From NCBI GenBank assembly GCA_021801125.1, contig JAJYYI010000017.1:33095-97094 (forward strand): a stretch of DNA of 64,000 nucleotides, read 5' to 3'. The translations under genes were made by a program, and so were the position numbers. The notes under the pieces were generated by a model, which saw only the letters and a program-made list of their open reading frames with translations, was not told the origin of the DNA and made no database searches. The first letter of the stretch is position 1. Every line of letters starts with the position of its first letter. Positions 4,101 through 49,918 of the stretch are shown piece by piece. This DNA comes from Deltaproteobacteria bacterium. Lineage in GTDB: Bacteria > Desulfobacterota > Binatia > Binatales > Binataceae.

Positions 4101-5622
4101 CAGGATCGAAGCGATGGACCTCGGCGTCAGCCGGACTTAACCGCTTATATAAAGCGCGAATGTTGCGGCTGTGGAAAATATAGGAGAAGTCCTGGATGTA
4201 CGGGCGATAAATATCAATGAGCGACTGCCCCAGACGAATGCGATCACTGGTTTGCGCCGCCCATCGCTCCAAGCGCCTTACCGCCGGCGCATCGCGCCCC
4301 ATCAGCAGCTGTCCCGCGCGGGCGGTCTGCGCCAACGCCCTGGGCAGCCCCCAGATCGCCGCCTCGTAGGTTTTATGGGAAACGGCGATGGGCTCCAGGT
4401 GCTGTGTGAGCAACTTTCCGGCGGTCTCACCATGCTCGCGCTGATGGCGCCGGTTGGCCACGGCGGTAAGCTCGATCAAGCGCTCCATGCGGAACGGGTT
4501 GGAGTCCGAAGAGCCGAGCTGGTAAATCGGTTCGTGACGACCCAGCAGCAGCGCAGCCAGAACGGGAAACATGGCGTGCGCCACGAGGTCCACCGGAATG
4601 ACGTCCAATATCAGCTCGCGGCGCGCGGGATAAAAGCGGTATCCCTCGCCCGACAGGTAGGTGAGCGGCGCGCTGGTGTTGACCCCTTGGTTCCATCCAG
4701 GGAAGGGATCTCTTATCGCGCTCTCGATTACCGCCGGGCGCACCACCGTCACTTTGAGCGTGTCGCGCGCGGCCAATACCAACTGCTCGCCCAAACTCTT
4801 GCTGTAGCTGTACGTATTGGGCCATCCCCAGTAAAGCGCGCGGCTGCGCCCTTCGCGCTTGAGTTCCTCCTCGAGCTGTTGCTTGGGCAACAGTTCTGCG
4901 CCGTCGCGCGCTTCGTCAAGGGCGGCGCCGTTTTCATCCTCGGGTTCCCTTGCGGCGCTCGACTCGATGCGCGATATCACCGCCTGGGCTTCGCGAATTT
5001 CGCGCTTCAGGCTGAAACGGCGCGCGCCCGGCTGCGGGCACCAATCCACCGGGATGTCGTCCTCATGCCGGTGGCCGTCGGCCGCGCCGGCAACGTAACA
5101 GGTCGAAATATGGAGCATCGGCGCACGTATTTTGCGGCAAAAGTCGAGCACATTGCCCGCCCCCAGCGTGTTAATCGCCAACGCCTTGTTAAGCGGCGCG
5201 TCGAAGTTCACCAATCCCGCGCAGTTAACGACCGCGTCTATCTGACCGCGCGTGAAGCGCGTCTGAGAATCAGTGACAAGGCCAGGCTCCGTGATGTCGC
5301 CGCATACGACGGTCAGCTTCTCCCGTACCCACCGGTCGAACGAGTCTCCCATCTGCTCGCGCAACGGGGCAAACGCGGGCGAGGCGAGCACCTCGCGCTC
5401 CAGCCGCTTGGGCCCCGAGCGCTGATCGCCGCGAACCAGCAGATAGACCTGTTCGACCTCGGGATGCTCGCGAAGAAGCAGATATAGAAAGACCTTACCG
5501 AGAAAGCCGGTAGCCCCGGTAAGCATGATGCGCCGTCCGCGGAAGATCTTTTCCAGCGGTGGAAGGCGGTCTCGTTGAGTTTTTCGTTGACCGACGCGCA
5601 ACAAATTATTGGACATCCGCAA
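1174..5622 (-). CDS. Multidomain lipid-biosynthesis enzyme resembling ElbD. Domains: N-terminal NAD(P)-binding fatty-acyl reductase (approx nt 5535-4065), acyl-AMP/CoA ligase (approx nt 3960-2385), phosphopantetheine carrier (approx nt 2325-2115), C-terminal PlsC-type acyltransferase (approx nt 2025-1425).
   Basis: TGATGFLGK Rossmann motif with the male-sterility/NAD_binding_4 region. AMP-binding core (FTSGTTGSAKGAMLTHGN ... GYGLTE ... HTGDLG). PP-binding LGLDSLALAEL (DSL serine). AGPAT motifs NHASHLD and FPEGTR. The frame is a continuous 1482-aa ORF. Confidence 0.85.
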   Translation of the reverse strand: MRMSNNLLRVGQRKTQRDRLPPLEKIFRGRRIMLTGATGFLGKVFLYLLLREHPEVEQVYLLVRGDQRSGPKRLEREVLASPAFAPLREQMGDSFDRWVREKLTVVCGDITEPGLVTDSQTRFTRGQIDAVVNCAGLVNFDAPLNKALAINTLGAGNVLDFCRKIRAPMLHISTCYVAGAADGHRHEDDIPVDWCPQPGARRFSLKREIREAQAVISRIESSAAREPEDENGAALDEARDGAELLPKQQLEEELKREGRSRALYWGWPNTYSYSKSLGEQLVLAARDTLKVTVVRPAVIESAIRDPFPGWNQGVNTSAPLTYLSGEGYRFYPARRELILDVIPVDLVAHAMFPVLAALLLGRHEPIYQLGSSDSNPFRMERLIELTAVANRRHQREHGETAGKLLTQHLEPIAVSHKTYEAAIWGLPRALAQTARAGQLLMGRDAPAVRRLERWAAQTSDRIRLGQSLIDIYRPYIQDFSYIFHSRNIRALYKRLSPADAEVHRFDPDKMDWHDYWVNIHIPGLRRHIFPRLDLHTRGRVRAKPLRFRHLIDLLDESAERHGAKPALSWRHSSGHHSTLSYRELRDAARRASLMLSSRGVQTGDRVLLAGENSPDWVLGFFAVIGAGAVAVPLDPMLSTDELRAICRVASPTAALCSASFRQRLGPMAEACGTALVEMAFEDLRRPFVLHGKTPAKVEWSKDTLASVVFTSGTTGSAKGAMLTHGNFTAEVLMLSRIFELDPTDTVLSLLPLHHCFEFTCGMLLPLASGAHIVYPRNVSAATLGRTLADVKPTALIGVPAIWQAIHRRILEQIERRGTVFKGAFERLRTLNHSLERDLRLDLGNLIFRPLHEALGGRLRLAVSGGAALPGETAEFFNDIGLRLLEGYGLTEAAPVVSVARPDEDLRLGSVGKPLSGLEVKLEAVEGGETGEILVRGGNVMKGYFRNESATEQALKDGWLHTGDLGRFDDGGRLYIVGRSKDVIVDAGGNNIYIDELEEFYGRLPQIKELAIVALKVGSGEQAAALVVPAYAHGESQRAVEEKIRAHFDQVNRALPPYKQVHILRFTGGELPRTRTRKVKRAEVASTLRAMVAKSAGAEAGGTSDLASWLAEALEQVAGGAREISSGSRLFEDLGLDSLALAELAEIIAQHSGWAPTADQLTAISTAGDLQGLIARDSSRPRLPSYAAFAEPYTPALPQALRRVGQSILAGAIESTVDRWLKPRVLGRGNIPANRNVLVIANHASHLDFVLVRSALGKLGEQLVVLAAKDYFFNSSARRFLAANFSPLIPFDREGAQLDSLNAALEKLARGASVLMFPEGTRTPHGAIQEFKSGAGYLALRSGCDVLPIYVQGTYHALGKGQLLPRRYPVELRIGPVITNEALVRAASDGESYGVYRKAAEVMRQAVVGLAQRSSAPRAVFRASSRVEAVVAAGNGDGIESSGTNHTAPDAEPVASNADGIDSESVNDAPTKPAASAAARDSS

Positions 5623-7267
5623 CCACCAGCGGTGGCAGGTGCAGGTAGGTGATGGTCGCCGAGCGTCCGATGTCGCCGGTGGCCATCGCGATAGCCTCTT
5701 CGACCGTGTCCGCCGCTTCCCAGCCTAGCCTCGCGGCGACCTGAGGATCTTCGCAACCAGCCGCGATCACGCGCCCCAGATGCTTGCGGCCGGGCTCGCC
5801 CCAGTACCACATGTAAAACGGATGCACGCCGTGGTACGCGTGACCGTACCGATACATATGAATGTACGTAGGATTGGCCGCAAACTCAGCTTCAAAGCGC
5901 TTGGACAGCTCCTCGGAGTCCGTGGTCTCTGCCAGGCATCGATGAAAGAACTCGATGTAGCTCGGATGATGCTCCGGGTGAAATTCGTTGCGCAGCGGGT
6001 GACATATGATCATCGTTCCGCCCGGGCGGACCAGAGGTTTGTACCGGTACATGTTGAACAGGTAGCCAAGCCCGGTACACTGCACCAGCACCGGATTCAT
6101 TACCGAATTGACGTTGTAAGGACAGACATACGGGACGCCGACGAGCAGAACGTCGGACTGTCCGCTGACCGGCACTGCGTATTGCTGGAACACGCGGTCT
6201 AGAGTTTTGCGATGCACGGCCTCGGTTTCTCCGGCCCATACGCCGGTCAACTCGTACGGCGCGGAGTAATGGTGCAACAGTTCGCGGCGCGTCCGATTAG
6301 ACATGTTCGCCAGCGTCCAGTTGAAGGCGCGAAGCCGCATGCGGTCCCATTCGTTGAACTCGTCTTCGTTCTTCTGCAGGAAGTCGAAGAAGCCCGAGTA
6401 CATGCGATTGTTGATCGACGTCTCAACCGTGAAGATGTTGAGCTCGCGACTGACGACCTTTCCAAGCCTGTCGACCGTGCTGTGAAGCGCCGAGCGATTC
6501 GGATCCATGTAAGAATGACATCCGCGCAGCGTGGCCGGATTATGGTGGTAACGCAAACTCTGATACGGCGCGAGGCCTACCGCCACCGACTTGTGCCCGC
6601 CATCCATCGGCACCAATGTCAAATTGACGTAGATCACCAGGTCGGAGTCGGCGGCGCGCTTTGAGAGCCACACTTCCTCGCCGTGCTCGGTCTTGCCGAG
6701 CATCGCGAGGTCGCCCGGGTTCTCGCCGTCGAAATTGTATAAGCGGTCGGGCCAGAACTGGGCAAAGGCGCGCTCGCCCACGGCGCGGCGAATCTCCGCG
6801 GCGGTCATGCGGCGATGCAGCGAGGTCGCTATGATGATGTGCACGTCGTCGACGCCGTAGTCCGCCAGCGTCTGCAGCACGATGTTGAGCACGCGCTCAC
6901 GCGCGTCGGGCCGCTGCATCGGCGGCAGCGGCAAGCTGATATCGTCGACGGCGATCGTCACCCGCATGTTCGGGTTAAGCTGCGCGAACAGCGGGTCGGC
7001 GTTCTCGGGGTGAAGCAGCGCGTAACGGATCGCGACCTCGGGATCGGGCAGCCCGTCCATCGGCGGCGGCGGATAAACGACGCGCGTGCCAGGCGGCAGC
7101 TTTTCTTCGAGGAATTCGTCGCCGTAAGCGATCAGGCGAGGCTTGGAGCGGCGCGTAAGAGTCACCACGAGATCACTGCGCGCGCCGATCTCATGAAGTA
7201 GTTCGGCCCGTTTGAGTTCCCTGAGTTTCGCTTCCGGAGCTGCCATTCGTCTGGCCACCGCGTACAC
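5606..7267 (-). CDS. LarA-family protein (lactate-racemase-like, putative nickel-pincer-nucleotide-dependent 2-hydroxyacid racemase/epimerase homologue), 553 aa
   Basis: An ATSLHRR motif (AT[GS]xHR) is followed 75 residues later by GGHKS. A His-His pair sits 15-16 residues after that Lys (KSVAVGLAPYQSLRYHH). This matches the His108/Lys184/His200 spacing of L. plantarum LarA as I recall it. The gene overlaps the ElbD-like gene start by 17 nt, which suggests translational coupling. Confidence 0.6.
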   Translation of the reverse strand: MYAVARRMAAPEAKLRELKRAELLHEIGARSDLVVTLTRRSKPRLIAYGDEFLEEKLPPGTRVVYPPPPMDGLPDPEVAIRYALLHPENADPLFAQLNPNMRVTIAVDDISLPLPPMQRPDARERVLNIVLQTLADYGVDDVHIIIATSLHRRMTAAEIRRAVGERAFAQFWPDRLYNFDGENPGDLAMLGKTEHGEEVWLSKRAADSDLVIYVNLTLVPMDGGHKSVAVGLAPYQSLRYHHNPATLRGCHSYMDPNRSALHSTVDRLGKVVSRELNIFTVETSINNRMYSGFFDFLQKNEDEFNEWDRMRLRAFNWTLANMSNRTRRELLHHYSAPYELTGVWAGETEAVHRKTLDRVFQQYAVPVSGQSDVLLVGVPYVCPYNVNSVMNPVLVQCTGLGYLFNMYRYKPLVRPGGTMIICHPLRNEFHPEHHPSYIEFFHRCLAETTDSEELSKRFEAEFAANPTYIHMYRYGHAYHGVHPFYMWYWGEPGRKHLGRVIAAGCEDPQVAARLGWEAADTVEEAIAMATGDIGRSATITYLHLPPLVVADVQ

Positions 7268-44229: not shown

Positions 44230-44664
44230 AGCTGAATATCCCCTTCTGGTCTCCCTTCCTGCGGTTTTATTAAAGAATCAGACGCCTGGCGAACGGCGCG
44301 CCCACGGTCAACGGCTGACCGCGAGACGGCGCGGCCTGGAAATCGTTCGGCAATAAAACTCCCGCTAGTATAGCAAAAGTTGCCTCGGATGAAGGCGTCG
44401 CGGGCCGACCCCACCATTGGTTCAGGGCCTTATCGCATCCTGGCGCAGCTCGCGCCGCAGGGCCGGGGCGGCCTCATAAGGGCTATCTGCGCCGCCGAGT
44501 GGGCGCTGAAGGCGGACTCGCTCTCTGGCATGCTTCGTACCCCGGCCAGGCCGTGAGTGACGAGGGCAAATTGAGGTGATATCCTCTGCGTAAAACTGAC
44601 CTGGGAGCCTGACCGCGCTGTTACGAGCGCGCCGCAAGTCGCAGACACCGGGAGACGAACAGTC

Positions 44665-45033
44665 ATGGTGAAGCAGAAAAAGCTGGCCCGCTTTTTGTGG
44701 AAATCGACCTGAAGTTCATGCCGCAACGCAAGAAGTTTCTTGCGCGACGAACTTAAGGTGGAACTCGATGAGCGCGATTACGTCAAACAACCGTTGTCAG
44801 TAGCCGAGTTGAAAGAACTCTTTCGCGGCCGCGACCCTCGCGATTTCCTCAACCGCAAGAGCGCGGCTTTCAAGCAGCGGGAGCTTGCGGGTAAGGACTT
44901 GAGCGCCGACGAGACGATAGCCCTGATGGCCGCCGAGCCGAATTTTATCAAACGACCCCTGATAATCGCAGGTGGCGAGATGATCGCCGGACTCGATCGC
45001 GACCGCCTTAACGCGCTGTTCGGCCGCAGCTAG
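44665..45033 (+). CDS. ArsC/Spx-family (glutaredoxin-like) reductase, candidate selenoprotein: in-frame TGA at 44710-44712 sits at the catalytic Cys position of the UxxC motif
   Basis: From the ATG at 44665 (GGGAGA 9 nt upstream) the frame reads MVKQKKLARFLWKST-TGA-SSCRNARSFLRDELKVELDERDYVKQPLSVAELKELF... This aligns with the Spx/YffB N-terminus (..Y..P.C..CRKAR.WL...PLS..EL..L) with Sec replacing the first Cys. A hairpin follows the TGA directly. The ORF track calls only the downstream TTG-initiated fragment (44740-45033). Confidence 0.55.
44712..44754 (+). promoter_or_regulatory. Putative bacterial SECIS element (extended hairpin starting 2 nt after the in-frame UGA; apical loop with GU ~25 nt downstream of UGA)
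   Basis: Outer stem AAGUUC (44712-17) pairs with GAACUU (44749-54). Inner stem GCAAGA(A) pairs with (U)UCUUGC around an AGUU loop (44728-44744). Confidence 0.45.
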
Positions 45034-45596
45034 GTTGCCGCACTCTTGGCACCTACCGCTTTCACACCTATTGCTCTCGGATCCTCACCACGGCCGTTAA
45101 GCGCTCTTCAAGAAGATTCTTCGCCTTTTCGGCCTGGCTTATTGGGGCGAGAACCGGGGCATGCTATTGCGACGCCGGCCGGCTCGCCTGCTCACCTGTT
45201 TTTTGCTCGCGCTTCAAAACGGCCGCAGCTAATGGCGAGGCTCTCGCGATCTTGCGCTCTTTCAACTCCTTGTGGCCATCGTCCGCACTCACGTCGTCTT
45301 CCTTGCGTACGCCCGGCTTTGAGGCCCCACGCTCTCGCTCGAACCTGAGCATGAGGCGAAAATCTCAGAGCCGTCCAGAAGCATGGAAGGAGTCTCGCAG
45401 ACGGTCGTGAATCACAGAATGTCGAATCGTAACCGTCTCGGAATAATGTAGACGTAATTTACTTGACTTCGGTCGCATTGATCCGTATGGATACAAGAAA
45501 CTTGGCGCTAACGGGGGTAATCGCCACAGGCAGGACGCCAGCTAGAGTACCTTGGAAAACAATTTCGATAACACAAGCGCCATCTCGACTGAACTA

Positions 45597-45625
45597 TTGA
45601 CTTTTCTCAGCTTGATGGCTATGTA
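45597..45625 (+). promoter_or_regulatory. Sigma70-like promoter: TTGACT - 17 nt - TATGTA
   Basis: Exact match to the -35 consensus in 5 of 6 positions and a 17-bp spacer, in a lower-GC intergenic region ~560 bp upstream of the OMP gene start. Confidence 0.35.
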
Positions 45626-45892
45626 AAGCACGCTACATGTCGTGCCATGGTGGGCGGAAAACCAAAGGTCTTCGAGAAGTCGAAGCGGACCGCGGGTTGG
45701 GCGGGAGAATATGAGCCAGTGCGCGCTCTAGGCGCTCTGGTGAGGTGAGGTTGCAGGGCGGGCCTGTGTAAGGGGCCGTGGCGGTAATTCAACAAGATCA
45801 CCCGAGACCGTTTCATCGCATCTAGCGCGATGAAAGTAGGGATGCCGATGCCGCTGCAGTGCGTCGTGTTGCTGCCACGCACGCGTAAGCAG

Positions 45893-45995
45893 ATCTCGGG
45901 TCAAACAAAGCGCCTGCATAGTCAACGTTTATAACGTCTATTAGGTCTTTACGCTTATTAGGACCCTACGTTCGGGAGGAGGAAACGCTTGATGG
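45893..45995 (+). repeat. Copy 1 of a degenerate ~100-bp direct repeat ('leader' module ending in GTTCGGGAGGAGGAAAC + ATG). It is followed by a 7-codon mini-ORF (ATGGTTAAGGGGCGCCGACAATAA).
   Basis: AAGCGCCTGCATAGTCAACGTTTATAAC...TTAGGACCCTACGTTCGGGAGGAGGAAACGCTTGATG, compared with copy 2. Confidence 0.5.
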
Positions 45996-46116
45996 TTAAG
46001 GGGCGCCGACAATAATCCAACAAGATTAGCCCAAGTTTTTCGCGGTATCTGTTGCGAGAAGCTGAGCACGTCGATGCCTCCCAGGCGCATCGGGCGTTGG
46101 TGTGCGCGCCTGACCA

Positions 46117-46190
46117 AATTTCTGGACAGACGAAGCGCCTGTGTAGTCAACGGTTAATAGGACTTCATGTTCGGGAGGAGGAAAGCATGA
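46117..46190 (+). repeat. Copy 2 of the same direct repeat. It supplies the RBS and start codon of the OMP gene.
   Basis: AAGCGCCTGTGTAGTCAACGGTTAATAGGACTTCATGTTCGGGAGGAGGAAAGCATG. It is ~85% identical to copy 1, apart from a ~27-bp insertion in copy 1. Confidence 0.5.
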
Positions 46191-47284
46191 ACGGTAAAAG
46201 GCTTGTGACCGGGTTTGCGTTGGCCGGCTTCCTATGGCTAGCCTGCGCTAGCGCGGCCAGCGCACAGGGGATCTATAGCTACAGAGGAACCAGCTTCACG
46301 CCAACGGCGCCGGTTCCGGCGAACACCGGCCTCGGGACATACTACAATTTTTTTAACAACACCGACGTCGACTCCTACGGACTCCCGGCGGGTCTCGTGT
46401 TCGGCGCATGGTTCAGCACTTACGTGAGCGACGGGGCATTCTACGGGCCAAACGGCAACAAAGTGGCCGGAGCACCTAACGGCGGAAATATTTGGGCGAA
46501 CGTGGCATGGTTCAACTGGATTTATCCCTGGCAGTTCGACACTCCAAACTTTCGCGTCGGCTTCAACGCTTTCATGCCGATCATCGCCGAAAGCGTCGAA
46601 GTTGCTGGTCCGACGGAATTTTGGTTCAGCCCTCTTGAAATGTTCTACTCGTATCACCAGTTCCGCTTCCTGCGTGACTCCACGTTCTTCGGCCCCTACA
46701 TCTCGCTGCCGGTTGGTGGTGGCTTCGGCTTCACCCCTAACAACGGAGCCGTCAACCAGTACAACTTCGCGTGGTTGATGGAAGGTTGGTATCAGTTCCA
46801 GCACATGGATGAGCTGGCGCTGGGCAACATGGGACTCGGTTGGCTCAACACCTTGGAGTTCCAGCCCTGGTTCTCCTATACCCATCAGCTGAACTCCACA
46901 CCGAATCTGCCGGCAAATGCCGTGTTCAGCACCGCTGGTGCCGCCCAGTTGGGAATTCCGGGAAACGCGCTCGGCGGTTACATGCCCGGGGACGACATCG
47001 ACGCGGGTGGTATCTTCAGCTACGGGCTGAAGCAAATAAACCCCGCCCTCAAGAACTGGCGTGTCGGCATGGTGTTCGACAGCAACTTCAGCGTGTTCCA
47101 AAACACCTGGGCCGGTGCTCCGATCAAAAACACAGCGTTCGAAATGGTGGACGTAGGCCCCAGCATCCAGTACTCCAAAGGCGACTTCGTACTGTGGTTC
47201 TACTACACCACCAACGTGCATACGGAGAACCAATACGGCTACCAGCAGTTCTTCCTCCAGCTCTACTACTTCTTCAATCTGTAA
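46187..47284 (+). CDS. Putative outer-membrane beta-barrel protein (porin-like), with signal peptide
   Basis: Signal peptide MNGKRLVTGFALAGFLWLACASAASAQG. Aromatic/Gly/Asn-rich sequence with alternating hydrophobic residues. C-terminal aromatic cluster (LQLYYFFNL). The ORF track's upstream start (46052) precedes the RBS and is unlikely. Confidence 0.55.
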   Translation: MNGKRLVTGFALAGFLWLACASAASAQGIYSYRGTSFTPTAPVPANTGLGTYYNFFNNTDVDSYGLPAGLVFGAWFSTYVSDGAFYGPNGNKVAGAPNGGNIWANVAWFNWIYPWQFDTPNFRVGFNAFMPIIAESVEVAGPTEFWFSPLEMFYSYHQFRFLRDSTFFGPYISLPVGGGFGFTPNNGAVNQYNFAWLMEGWYQFQHMDELALGNMGLGWLNTLEFQPWFSYTHQLNSTPNLPANAVFSTAGAAQLGIPGNALGGYMPGDDIDAGGIFSYGLKQINPALKNWRVGMVFDSNFSVFQNTWAGAPIKNTAFEMVDVGPSIQYSKGDFVLWFYYTTNVHTENQYGYQQFFLQLYYFFNL

Positions 47285-49779: not shown

Positions 49780-49918
49780 CCGGCGGCCGCCGGCCGCTGA
49801 TAGCCGGGTCCCGCGCAAGGGAAGGCCGCGAACCCCGCCAGGTCCGGAAGGAAGCAACGGCACCGGCTCAATCTCTGTGCCGCGGGGGTGCCTGGCTATC
49901 ATTTGACCGGCGGCGCCG
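49780..49918 (+). ncRNA. ffs: Signal recognition particle RNA (4.5S / ffs-like); ends approximate
   Basis: CAGGUCCGGAAGGAAGCAACGGCA matches the universally conserved SRP RNA domain-IV motif (..GGUCCGGAAGGAAGCAGC..). The 5' and 3' arms pair (GCUGAUAGCC with GGCUAUCA, and GC-rich extensions). Its location immediately upstream of dnaX is classic. Confidence 0.65.

Follow-up and report, generated by a model that had tools for sequence, protein, structure and literature searches.

The gene-free spacer upstream of a gene for a putative outer-membrane channel was analysed in a 64,000-nucleotide stretch of DNA (the window) from an uncultured deltaproteobacterial lineage, contig JAJYYI010000017.1. We read this spacer as the promoter and long leader of a COG4313-like channel gene, bearing a lineage-specific duplication that is a by-product, and give this reading a probability of roughly 0.6. 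The locus is an ordinary feature, which belongs to no described RNA family and requires no new kind of element. The spacer spans 1153 bp (45034-46186), from a gene for an ArsC-family protein to the channel gene, a length which assumes that an unsupported 62-amino-acid minus-strand open reading frame (ORF) is not real. A first-pass annotation had called it unusually long and AT-richer than its surroundings; it is in fact longer than was supposed, and the GC content of 45350-46190 is 52.8%, compared with 61.3% across the window. The features on which this reading depends are listed here, L001, L003 and L005 being the orthologous loci of three related genomes.

45443-45517, plus strand: conserved block P1, putative upstream promoter and/or operator (conserved in relatives, motifs unique to the locus)
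45593-45650, plus strand: conserved block P2, containing the promoter proposed in the first-pass annotation (84-91% identical to L001, L003 and L005)
45632-45768, plus strand: start of the leader, rich in G (42%) and poor in C (21%)
45769-45996 (alignable to 46004), plus strand: copy 1 of the duplicated unit, upstream and decaying (self-BLAST, E = 6e-14)
45997-46202, plus strand: copy 2, functional, holding the Shine-Dalgarno (SD) sequence at 46169-46184 and the start codon at 46187 (self-BLAST, alignment)
45992-46015, plus strand: seven-codon ORF MVKGRRQ*, spanning the duplication junction (aligns to ATGAACGGTAAAAGG of the real start, MNGKR...)
46187-47284, plus strand: channel gene, 365 amino acids with a signal peptide, predicted distant COG4313 / PF13557-type outer-membrane β-barrel

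The duplicated start region of the channel gene

The repeat in the spacer is a head-to-tail duplication of ~228 bp. Comparison of the region with itself by BLAST paired 45769-45931 with 45997-46156 (E = 6e-14) and 45959-46004 with 46158-46202, and the repeat families showed spacings of 225-228 and 199 nt. Over 206 aligned columns the copies share 66.5% identity, and copy 1 carries in addition an insertion of 27 nt. The first-pass annotation had described a module of ~100 bp, present twice at ~85% identity; two copies are indeed there, but the unit is longer and its copies more diverged, identity reaching 81% within the narrower range considered at that time. Its reading of two GTTCGGGAGGAGGAAA copies, of the seven-codon MVKGRRQ* at 45992-46015 and of the main ATG at 46187 was confirmed in the sequence. 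This 16-mer, which contains the SD, occurs exactly twice in the 64-kb window (45970-45985 and 46169-46184), as does AAGCGCCTGYRTAGTCAACG, for which the chance expectation is 0.

The unit extends from GTAAGGGGC in the leader (left end, 45767-45775) to GTAAAAGGC (right end, 46193-46201), which corresponds to codons 3-5 of the channel gene, and the junction lies on the 9-nt near-repeat, or microhomology, formed by GTAAGGGGC and GTAAAAGGC. Across it, the sequence ...GGAAACGCTTGATGGTTAAGGGGCGCCG... reads as a somewhat mutated gene start (ATGAACGGTAAAAGG) running directly into what comes after GTAAGGGGC in the leader. In a four-way alignment of the window with L001, L003 and L005, the relatives proved to be single-copy and the window to hold a private block of ~200 columns. 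The locus thus combines what is expected of a tandem duplication, namely adjacent copies arranged head to tail, only one copy in each relative and short homology at the junction.

Since the junction joins the gene start to leader sequence, the mini-ORF corresponds to a decayed duplicate of the gene's first codons, read on into the leader until a stop is reached. Its stop lies 171 nt short of the main ATG, and L001, L003 and L005 do not have it. From these alignments it appears to be a vestige of the duplicated channel-gene start and not a designed feature. The earlier proposal of a designed upstream mini-ORF is thus not supported, as both module and mini-ORF are missing from the three related leaders and are products of tandem duplication. 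Of the properties expected of a regulatory upstream ORF (uORF) or attenuator, neither conservation of the uORF nor a terminator-like site downstream of it was found. The first-pass annotation had named a local duplication without counterpart elsewhere as the outcome that would speak against its proposal, and such a duplication is what was found for the module and the uORF.

The copies have diverged considerably. Identity is 63-66% between copy 1 and copy 2 and 50-61% between either copy and the orthologs; the copies being closer to each other than to the orthologs, the duplication is placed after the split from the lineages of the orthologs, yet it is not recent. In the last 48, SD-proximal columns, copy 2 is 91.7% identical to L001 and 89.6% to L003, while copy 1 is 69% identical to the orthologs, so that near the start clear constraint appears to act on copy 2 only. 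Copy 1 also contains a slippage array at 45925-45960 (plus strand) with a unit of ~9 nt (ACGTTTATA / ACGTCTATT / AGGTCTTT / ACGCTTATT). This array amounts to about three extra 9-nt units (+27 nt), which neither copy 2 nor any of the relatives has.

We propose that an event confined to this lineage, either unequal exchange or slippage between GTAAGGGGC and GTAAAAGGC, generated the ~228 bp head-to-tail duplication, and that the upstream copy then decayed, its start codon now opening MVKGRRQ*. Besides ~200 nt of sequence, the event would have contributed another SD and the vestigial seven-codon ORF, most probably with little or no effect on fitness. On this reading, the mini-ORF and the second "leader" would be by-products of duplication and not a conserved regulatory design. 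The arrangement is like microhomology-mediated tandem duplications of gene 5' ends in its head-to-tail copies, its 9-nt near-repeat junction and the decay of one copy. Compared with such duplications generally it shows nothing unusual, except that the unit carries an SD and a start codon, and for this reason an upstream mini-ORF was created. The significance of the case beyond annotation is small: a repeat can mimic a designed "leader plus mini-ORF" when a ribosome-binding site and a start codon fall within it, and three relatives sufficed to show the scar.

Homologues of the channel protein are rare: 5.8 billion proteins yielded just eight clusters of them at 90% identity, and a profile search with the channel family returned 13 representatives among 1.84 billion. 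A protein identical to that of the window is encoded in nine other assemblies. Loci were traced to contigs for all but three of the eight homologous proteins. The gene order ArsC-spacer-channel gene is kept in three distinct related genomes, L001 (a metagenome-assembled genome labelled Deltaproteobacteria bacterium), L003 and L005, whose channel proteins share 83%, 82% and 79% amino-acid identity, respectively, with that of the window. In L001, L003/L004/L009 and L005 alike, the channel gene comes after an ArsC-family gene, and this synteny identifies the orthologous loci. The upstream region of L004 is identical to that of L003, and L009 has the same leader reading and the same channel protein as L003; the collections searched thus hold four distinct orthologous leaders (window, L001, L003 and L005). 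A genome-collection scan with the channel protein detected two loci only. One metagenome-wide scan with the P2 pattern added a single further contig, L009, and missed the window's own sample although the sequence fits, that sample evidently lying outside the collection.

Promoter-like blocks and the leader RNA

BLAST aligned only 45453-45517, 45593-45635 and 46148-46224 of the spacer to the relatives. The promoter-containing conserved blocks are 83-91% identical to the relatives, and their motifs occur at this locus only. In P1, an AT-rich tract is followed by TTGACT (45463-45468), a 17-nt spacer and TATGGA (45486-45491). The palindrome GTATGGATAC (45485-45494) overlaps TATGGA and is represented in relatives by GTATCCATAC or CTATCCATAA; 3' of it, AAACTTGGCG (45498-45507) is invariant in the four-way alignment. 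Identity of P1 to L001 and to L005 is 83% over 45453-45517 (BLAST). P2 consists of a -35 element TTGACT (45597-45602), a 17-nt spacer and a weak -10 element TATGTA (45620-45625), and the four-way alignment shows ACTATTGACTTT, TGATGG within the spacer and TAAAGCACGCTA after the -10 element to be invariant. It is followed by an inverted repeat, GCACG-N8-CGTGC (45628-45645), for which the relatives have AGCAC-N10-GTGCT with the same centre. The two blocks are 134 nt apart, each with an A/T-rich tract on its 5' side and a short palindrome overlapping it.

With respect to the sigma-70 consensus, P1 and P2 both present TTGACT with a 17-nt spacer, the -35 element being invariant or nearly so in the four orthologs. 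Neither has a good -10 element, as TATGTA and TATGGA each match at three of six positions and are without the final T. For P2 the overall agreement is 8/12 (-35, 5/6; -10, 3/6), and 58 sites of this class exist in the 64-kb window on both strands. The sequence TTGACT-17-TATGTA reported earlier at 45597-45625 is therefore present as described, but it is not near-consensus, and a consensus promoter scanner reported neither P1 nor P2. The same scanning approach found no terminator-like site on the plus strand between P1, P2 and the channel gene.

Judged by their conservation, P1 and P2 may well be active promoters, and the palindromes are candidate operators that could bind a regulator. As the P2 block is among the few parts conserved in relatives, it is plausible that a promoter here precedes a long untranslated leader, in line with the first-pass view of the spacer as the upstream control region of an outer-membrane gene. 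Transcription would proceed from one or both of P1 (~45463-45491) and P2 (45597-45625), the overlapping palindromes may serve as operators, and a long purine-/G-rich, weakly structured leader ending in a very strong SD would promote efficient expression of the channel. This layout fits high-level gene expression rather than RNA-switch gating. Conserved promoter and operator candidates are thereby defined for this uncultured deltaproteobacterial lineage.

The leader measures ~555 nt in the window (569 nt were folded) and 265-355 nt in the relatives. In each of the four orthologs, G makes up 42-49% and C 18-21% of its first 140-170 nt after P2, and a further block, GGTGAGGTTGCAGG (45744-45757), is invariant in the four-way alignment. 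Rho loads on C-rich, G-poor RNA. The G-rich, C-poor composition may shield the untranslated leader from Rho; it is what would be expected of a long leader that has to avoid being terminated early by Rho, and it fits an untranslated transcript of the plus strand. Runs such as GG-TGA-GG-TGA-GG-TTGCA-GGG in 45632-45768, and in the equivalent parts of L001, L003 and L005, could form two-tetrad G-quadruplexes.

Three short perfect hairpins had been noted in this region and all are present: GCACG/CGTGC (45628-45645), CTTCGA-gaag-TCGAAG (45670-45685) and TTTCATCGC/GCGATGAAA (45811-45835). Their enrichment is marginal. Hairpins with stems of at least 5 bp number 14, versus 8.1 ± 3.7 in dinucleotide shuffles (fraction equal to or above the observed value, 0.09), and for longer stems this fraction is 0.04-0.05. 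The hairpin at 45670-45685 is specific to the window; the relatives read TTGCAAGAAGTCGAAG and do not form it. A terminator-like site on the minus strand (45685-45670) coincides with this CTTCGA hairpin and is likewise not conserved in relatives. The hairpin at 45811-45835, in copy 1, has a 9-bp stem (z = -2.2) and an equivalent in copy 2 at ~46034-46063. At the equivalent position, L003 shows a hairpin indistinguishable from shuffles (z = -0.9) and L001 none better than chance, and L005 is without the ~110-nt middle section that carries two hairpins.

In folding energy relative to shuffles, the window leader scored z = -0.52 on the plus strand and -1.24 on the minus strand, and the single-copy leader of L001 scored +1.96, which makes it less stable than random sequence. 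For the four distinct sequences RNAalifold returned weak consensus energies, the covariation terms being -0.44 and +0.56 kcal/mol. In every ortholog, shuffled sequence folds more stably than the 60 nt surrounding the SD and AUG (z from +0.5 to +1.4), as is typical of an open initiation region and not of a sequestered one. An SD-sequestering hairpin in the consensus fold (UUCAUG/CAUGAA) was considered and rejected as evidence of a switch, being invariant, weak and no better than shuffles. The Rfam scan suggested in the first-pass annotation yielded nothing relevant in the spacer: over 44500-47000 at E ≤ 10 the sole match was a chance match to a long non-coding RNA within a coding region, the orthologous leaders of L001 and L003 gave no match in their conserved part at permissive E values, and the entire 64-kb window contained only a signal recognition particle (SRP) RNA (49802-49900). 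No conserved small ORF was found on either strand of the leader, frames and indels being inconsistent. Within the limited power of these comparisons, the leader is no more structured than random sequence and is probably not a structured RNA; the structured cis-regulatory transcript postulated earlier finds no support in these z-scores, covariation terms and Rfam results.

Paralogs and distant homologs (L002, L007, L008, L010 and L011) stand in other contexts, and neither BLAST nor nhmmer with a leader profile relates their upstream DNA to the leader; the same profile found nothing significant in the paralog loci or in the rest of the window. The leader element is thus confined to the ArsC-syntenic orthologs and does not recur upstream of homologous genes in other lineages.

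Alternative explanations and known systems

Several observations weigh against a promoter and leader with a by-product duplication. The -10 elements are poor and are not kept as hexamers in the relatives (TATGTA, TAAATA, TAATTA), and the ~55 contiguous conserved nt around P2, spacer included, are more than a promoter alone requires. Tests of covariation are low in power with only four distinct orthologous leaders. The window copies carry a hairpin at the equivalent position, with different stem sequences and z of about -2 each, and the decayed copy 1 keeps its SD intact (16/16 identical to copy 2) between flanks that are ~67% identical; the intact SD and the hairpin kept in both copies hint at selection at the RNA level. 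One alternative, the main idea of the first-pass annotation, is a structured cis-regulatory RNA (riboswitch-like, thermosensor or protein-binding) acting on the channel mRNA at the level of translation or termination; in its favour stand a long leader with several sequence blocks conserved across four orthologs, a hairpin that recurs in both copies and in L003 with differing stems, and an inverted repeat just past P2 kept with a shifted register. We regard such an RNA as improbable, since Rfam at E ≤ 10 was empty for the window, L001 and L003 leaders, minimum free energies were no better than those of shuffles (worse in L001), the covariation term was ~0, the SD/AUG region was less folded than shuffles, the leader contained no plus-strand terminator-like site, the hairpin-bearing middle section is deleted in L005 and the paralogous genes of L010, L011, L002, L007 and L008 have unrelated upstream DNA. 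It is similarly doubtful that the G-rich/C-poor leader of at least 265 nt represents a new, lineage-restricted cis-acting RNA element for a hydrophobic-substrate channel, its duplicated platform kept as a ribosome-loading or stabilising decoy; such an element would comprise the invariant AAACTTGGCG, TAAAGCACGCTA and GGTGAGGTTGCAGG together with the recurring hairpin. Were the decoy SD functional, the locus would illustrate how an mRNA-stabilising element can arise naturally by duplication. A small RNA gene followed by a paralogous leader had also been put forward; in the form weighed here, P1 would drive that separate gene and the downstream module would be the leader. For this proposal, the conservation of P1, followed by the invariant AAACTTGGCG and by GGCG/CGCC pairing options, has to be set against the absence of terminator-like sites between P1 and P2 and between the copies, the lack of an Rfam match and the adjacent head-to-tail copies with a junction inside the first codons, a signature of tandem duplication and not of two genes; we consider this proposal very unlikely. 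Least credible of all, to the point of being nearly negligible, is an assembly artefact: the sequence does come from a metagenome assembly, but about one position in three and a 27-nt indel distinguish the copies, and diverged repeats are not something that assemblers produce; in addition, a separately stored contig record, possibly of the same assembly, agrees with the sequence throughout 1197 nt.

The locus was compared with two known kinds of mRNA-stabilising leader. The leader of Escherichia coli ompA, the gene for a major outer-membrane protein, is 133 nt long with defined stem-loops, and outer-membrane leaders such as that of ompA are typical targets of trans-acting small RNAs. The channel gene is like ompA in having an untranslated leader 5' of an outer-membrane β-barrel gene and a strong SD; unlike that of ompA, its leader is 265-555 nt long and G-rich/C-poor, shows no stability above shuffles and has no sequence or Rfam relationship to it. 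STAB-SD elements are SD-like sequences inside 5' leaders that stabilise the mRNA, for example that of Bacillus thuringiensis cryIIIA. Copy 1 similarly leaves an intact strong SD within the leader, ~200 nt upstream of the real start, but this SD precedes a start codon and a seven-codon ORF, was born by duplication and is absent in relatives, and its stabilising effect is hypothetical. In ompA, ribosome binding at the strong SD contributes to mRNA stability, and long stabilising 5' untranslated regions are established (review PMC7509114). A functional copy 1, whose SD and mini-ORF load ribosomes, stabilise the mRNA or block Rho, is in our judgement unlikely, if slightly more probable than a structured RNA. 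A strong SD stabilises ompA and ermC mRNA even without a start codon (PMC7509114), an untranslated leader longer by ~200 nt would be more exposed to Rho and RNases, and the 16/16 identity of the SD stands out from its flanks. Against this, a run of at least 16 matches arises somewhere in the copy alignment in ~9% of simulations (~0.09), the relatives manage without a second SD and the uORF peptide is simply the frame-shifted gene start.

The channel gene and its surroundings

The SD block GACTTCATG(A/T)TCGGGAGGAGGAAA(C)GCATGAACGG is nearly invariant in the orthologs, and the SD itself, GGGAGGAGG, is very strong and lies in an open, weakly folded initiation region. An upstream ATG at 46167 shares the reading frame of the channel gene in L001 and L005 but not in the window or in L003, an inconsistency which indicates that the annotated ATG at 46187 is the real start. 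In the window the upstream ATG opens a tiny ORF (46167-46190, plus strand; ATG TTC GGG AGG AGG AAA GCA TGA), whose stop overlaps the main start (ATGA).

The channel protein has no direct match in Pfam or NCBIfam. The profile of its family reaches PF13557 (Phenol_MetA_deg) proteins with E values of ~1e-10 to 1e-9, and PDB entry 4RL8 at E = 0.0019. An AlphaFold (AF2) model built with 16 sequences, remote homologs included, is an all-β barrel with a predicted local distance difference test score (pLDDT) of 79.6, whereas a model built with nine close homologs only was not usable (pLDDT 28). The top Foldseek match of the model was 4RL8 (E = 4.6e-10; TM score 0.74-0.78, normalised to the target), which bears out the earlier call of an outer-membrane protein gene, "porin" being loosely right. 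COG4313 channels are 12-stranded barrels implicated in the uptake of hydrophobic molecules (PMC4493636). Like COG4313/PF13557 channels (Pput2725 = PDB 4RL8 of Pseudomonas putida, TcpY and SphA), the protein combines a signal peptide, profile reach and a predicted barrel; unlike them, it is only ~12% identical to 4RL8, has a mature length of ~340 amino acids versus 270-320 and lacks a direct Pfam match. The model and profiles thus support the prediction of a distant COG4313-type outer-membrane β-barrel channel, by which an orphan gene is assigned to this hydrophobic-substrate channel family, where it appears from its few homologues to form a very small orphan subfamily. A paralog with 85% identity lies on another contig of the same metagenome (L011), the gene occupying 6001-7116 in both L010 and L011. 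The L011 paralog differs at its N-terminus; its gene is preceded by ~1.1 kb of unrelated, gene-free DNA and followed by a gene for an extracytoplasmic function (ECF) sigma factor.

The remaining features of the spacer and its upstream border are as follows.

44740-45033, plus strand: upstream gene, 97-amino-acid ArsC-family protein (Pfam PF03960, E = 1.1e-10)
45034-45440, no strand assigned: non-conserved part of the spacer, including the 62-amino-acid ORF (no BLAST alignment to relatives)
45164-45352, minus strand: 62-amino-acid ORF, called as a gene in the Joint Genome Institute (JGI) annotation, the only publicly annotated ORF in the spacer

The 62-amino-acid ORF has no Pfam match and no tblastn match in the related loci, and is probably not a gene. 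BLAST of the region against plasmid and phage collections gave no match, which argues that it is not a mobile element. The 12-mer CGGCCGCAGCTA at the end of the ArsC-family gene (45021-45032, plus strand; ...GRS*) occurs again at 45220-45231, 199 nt downstream, where the frame reads ...NGRS*. A second duplication, of the ArsC 3' end, was considered as the origin of this pair, but there is no wider similarity, and the recurrence is probably due to chance.

Two RNA matches lie outside the spacer of the window. In L001, a weak match to the whalefall-1 RNA model at 5276-5332 (minus strand) falls below threshold (23.7 bits, E = 0.0014; gathering score 37). That stretch of the L001 spacer is not conserved and is rich in palindromes (GGGGAGAGG / CCTCTCCCC), and the match is probably driven by repeats. 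In the window, the SRP RNA is of the bacterial small type (RF00169, 73.8 bits, E = 1.4e-14; 49802-49900, plus strand) and stands directly 5' of dnaX-ybaB-recR. A TTGTAA-17-TTAAAT site is located ~50 nt upstream of it, and the AT-rich -10 region of this site, TTAAATAAAAC, is similar to the -10 region of P2 in the relatives, TAAATAAAGC.

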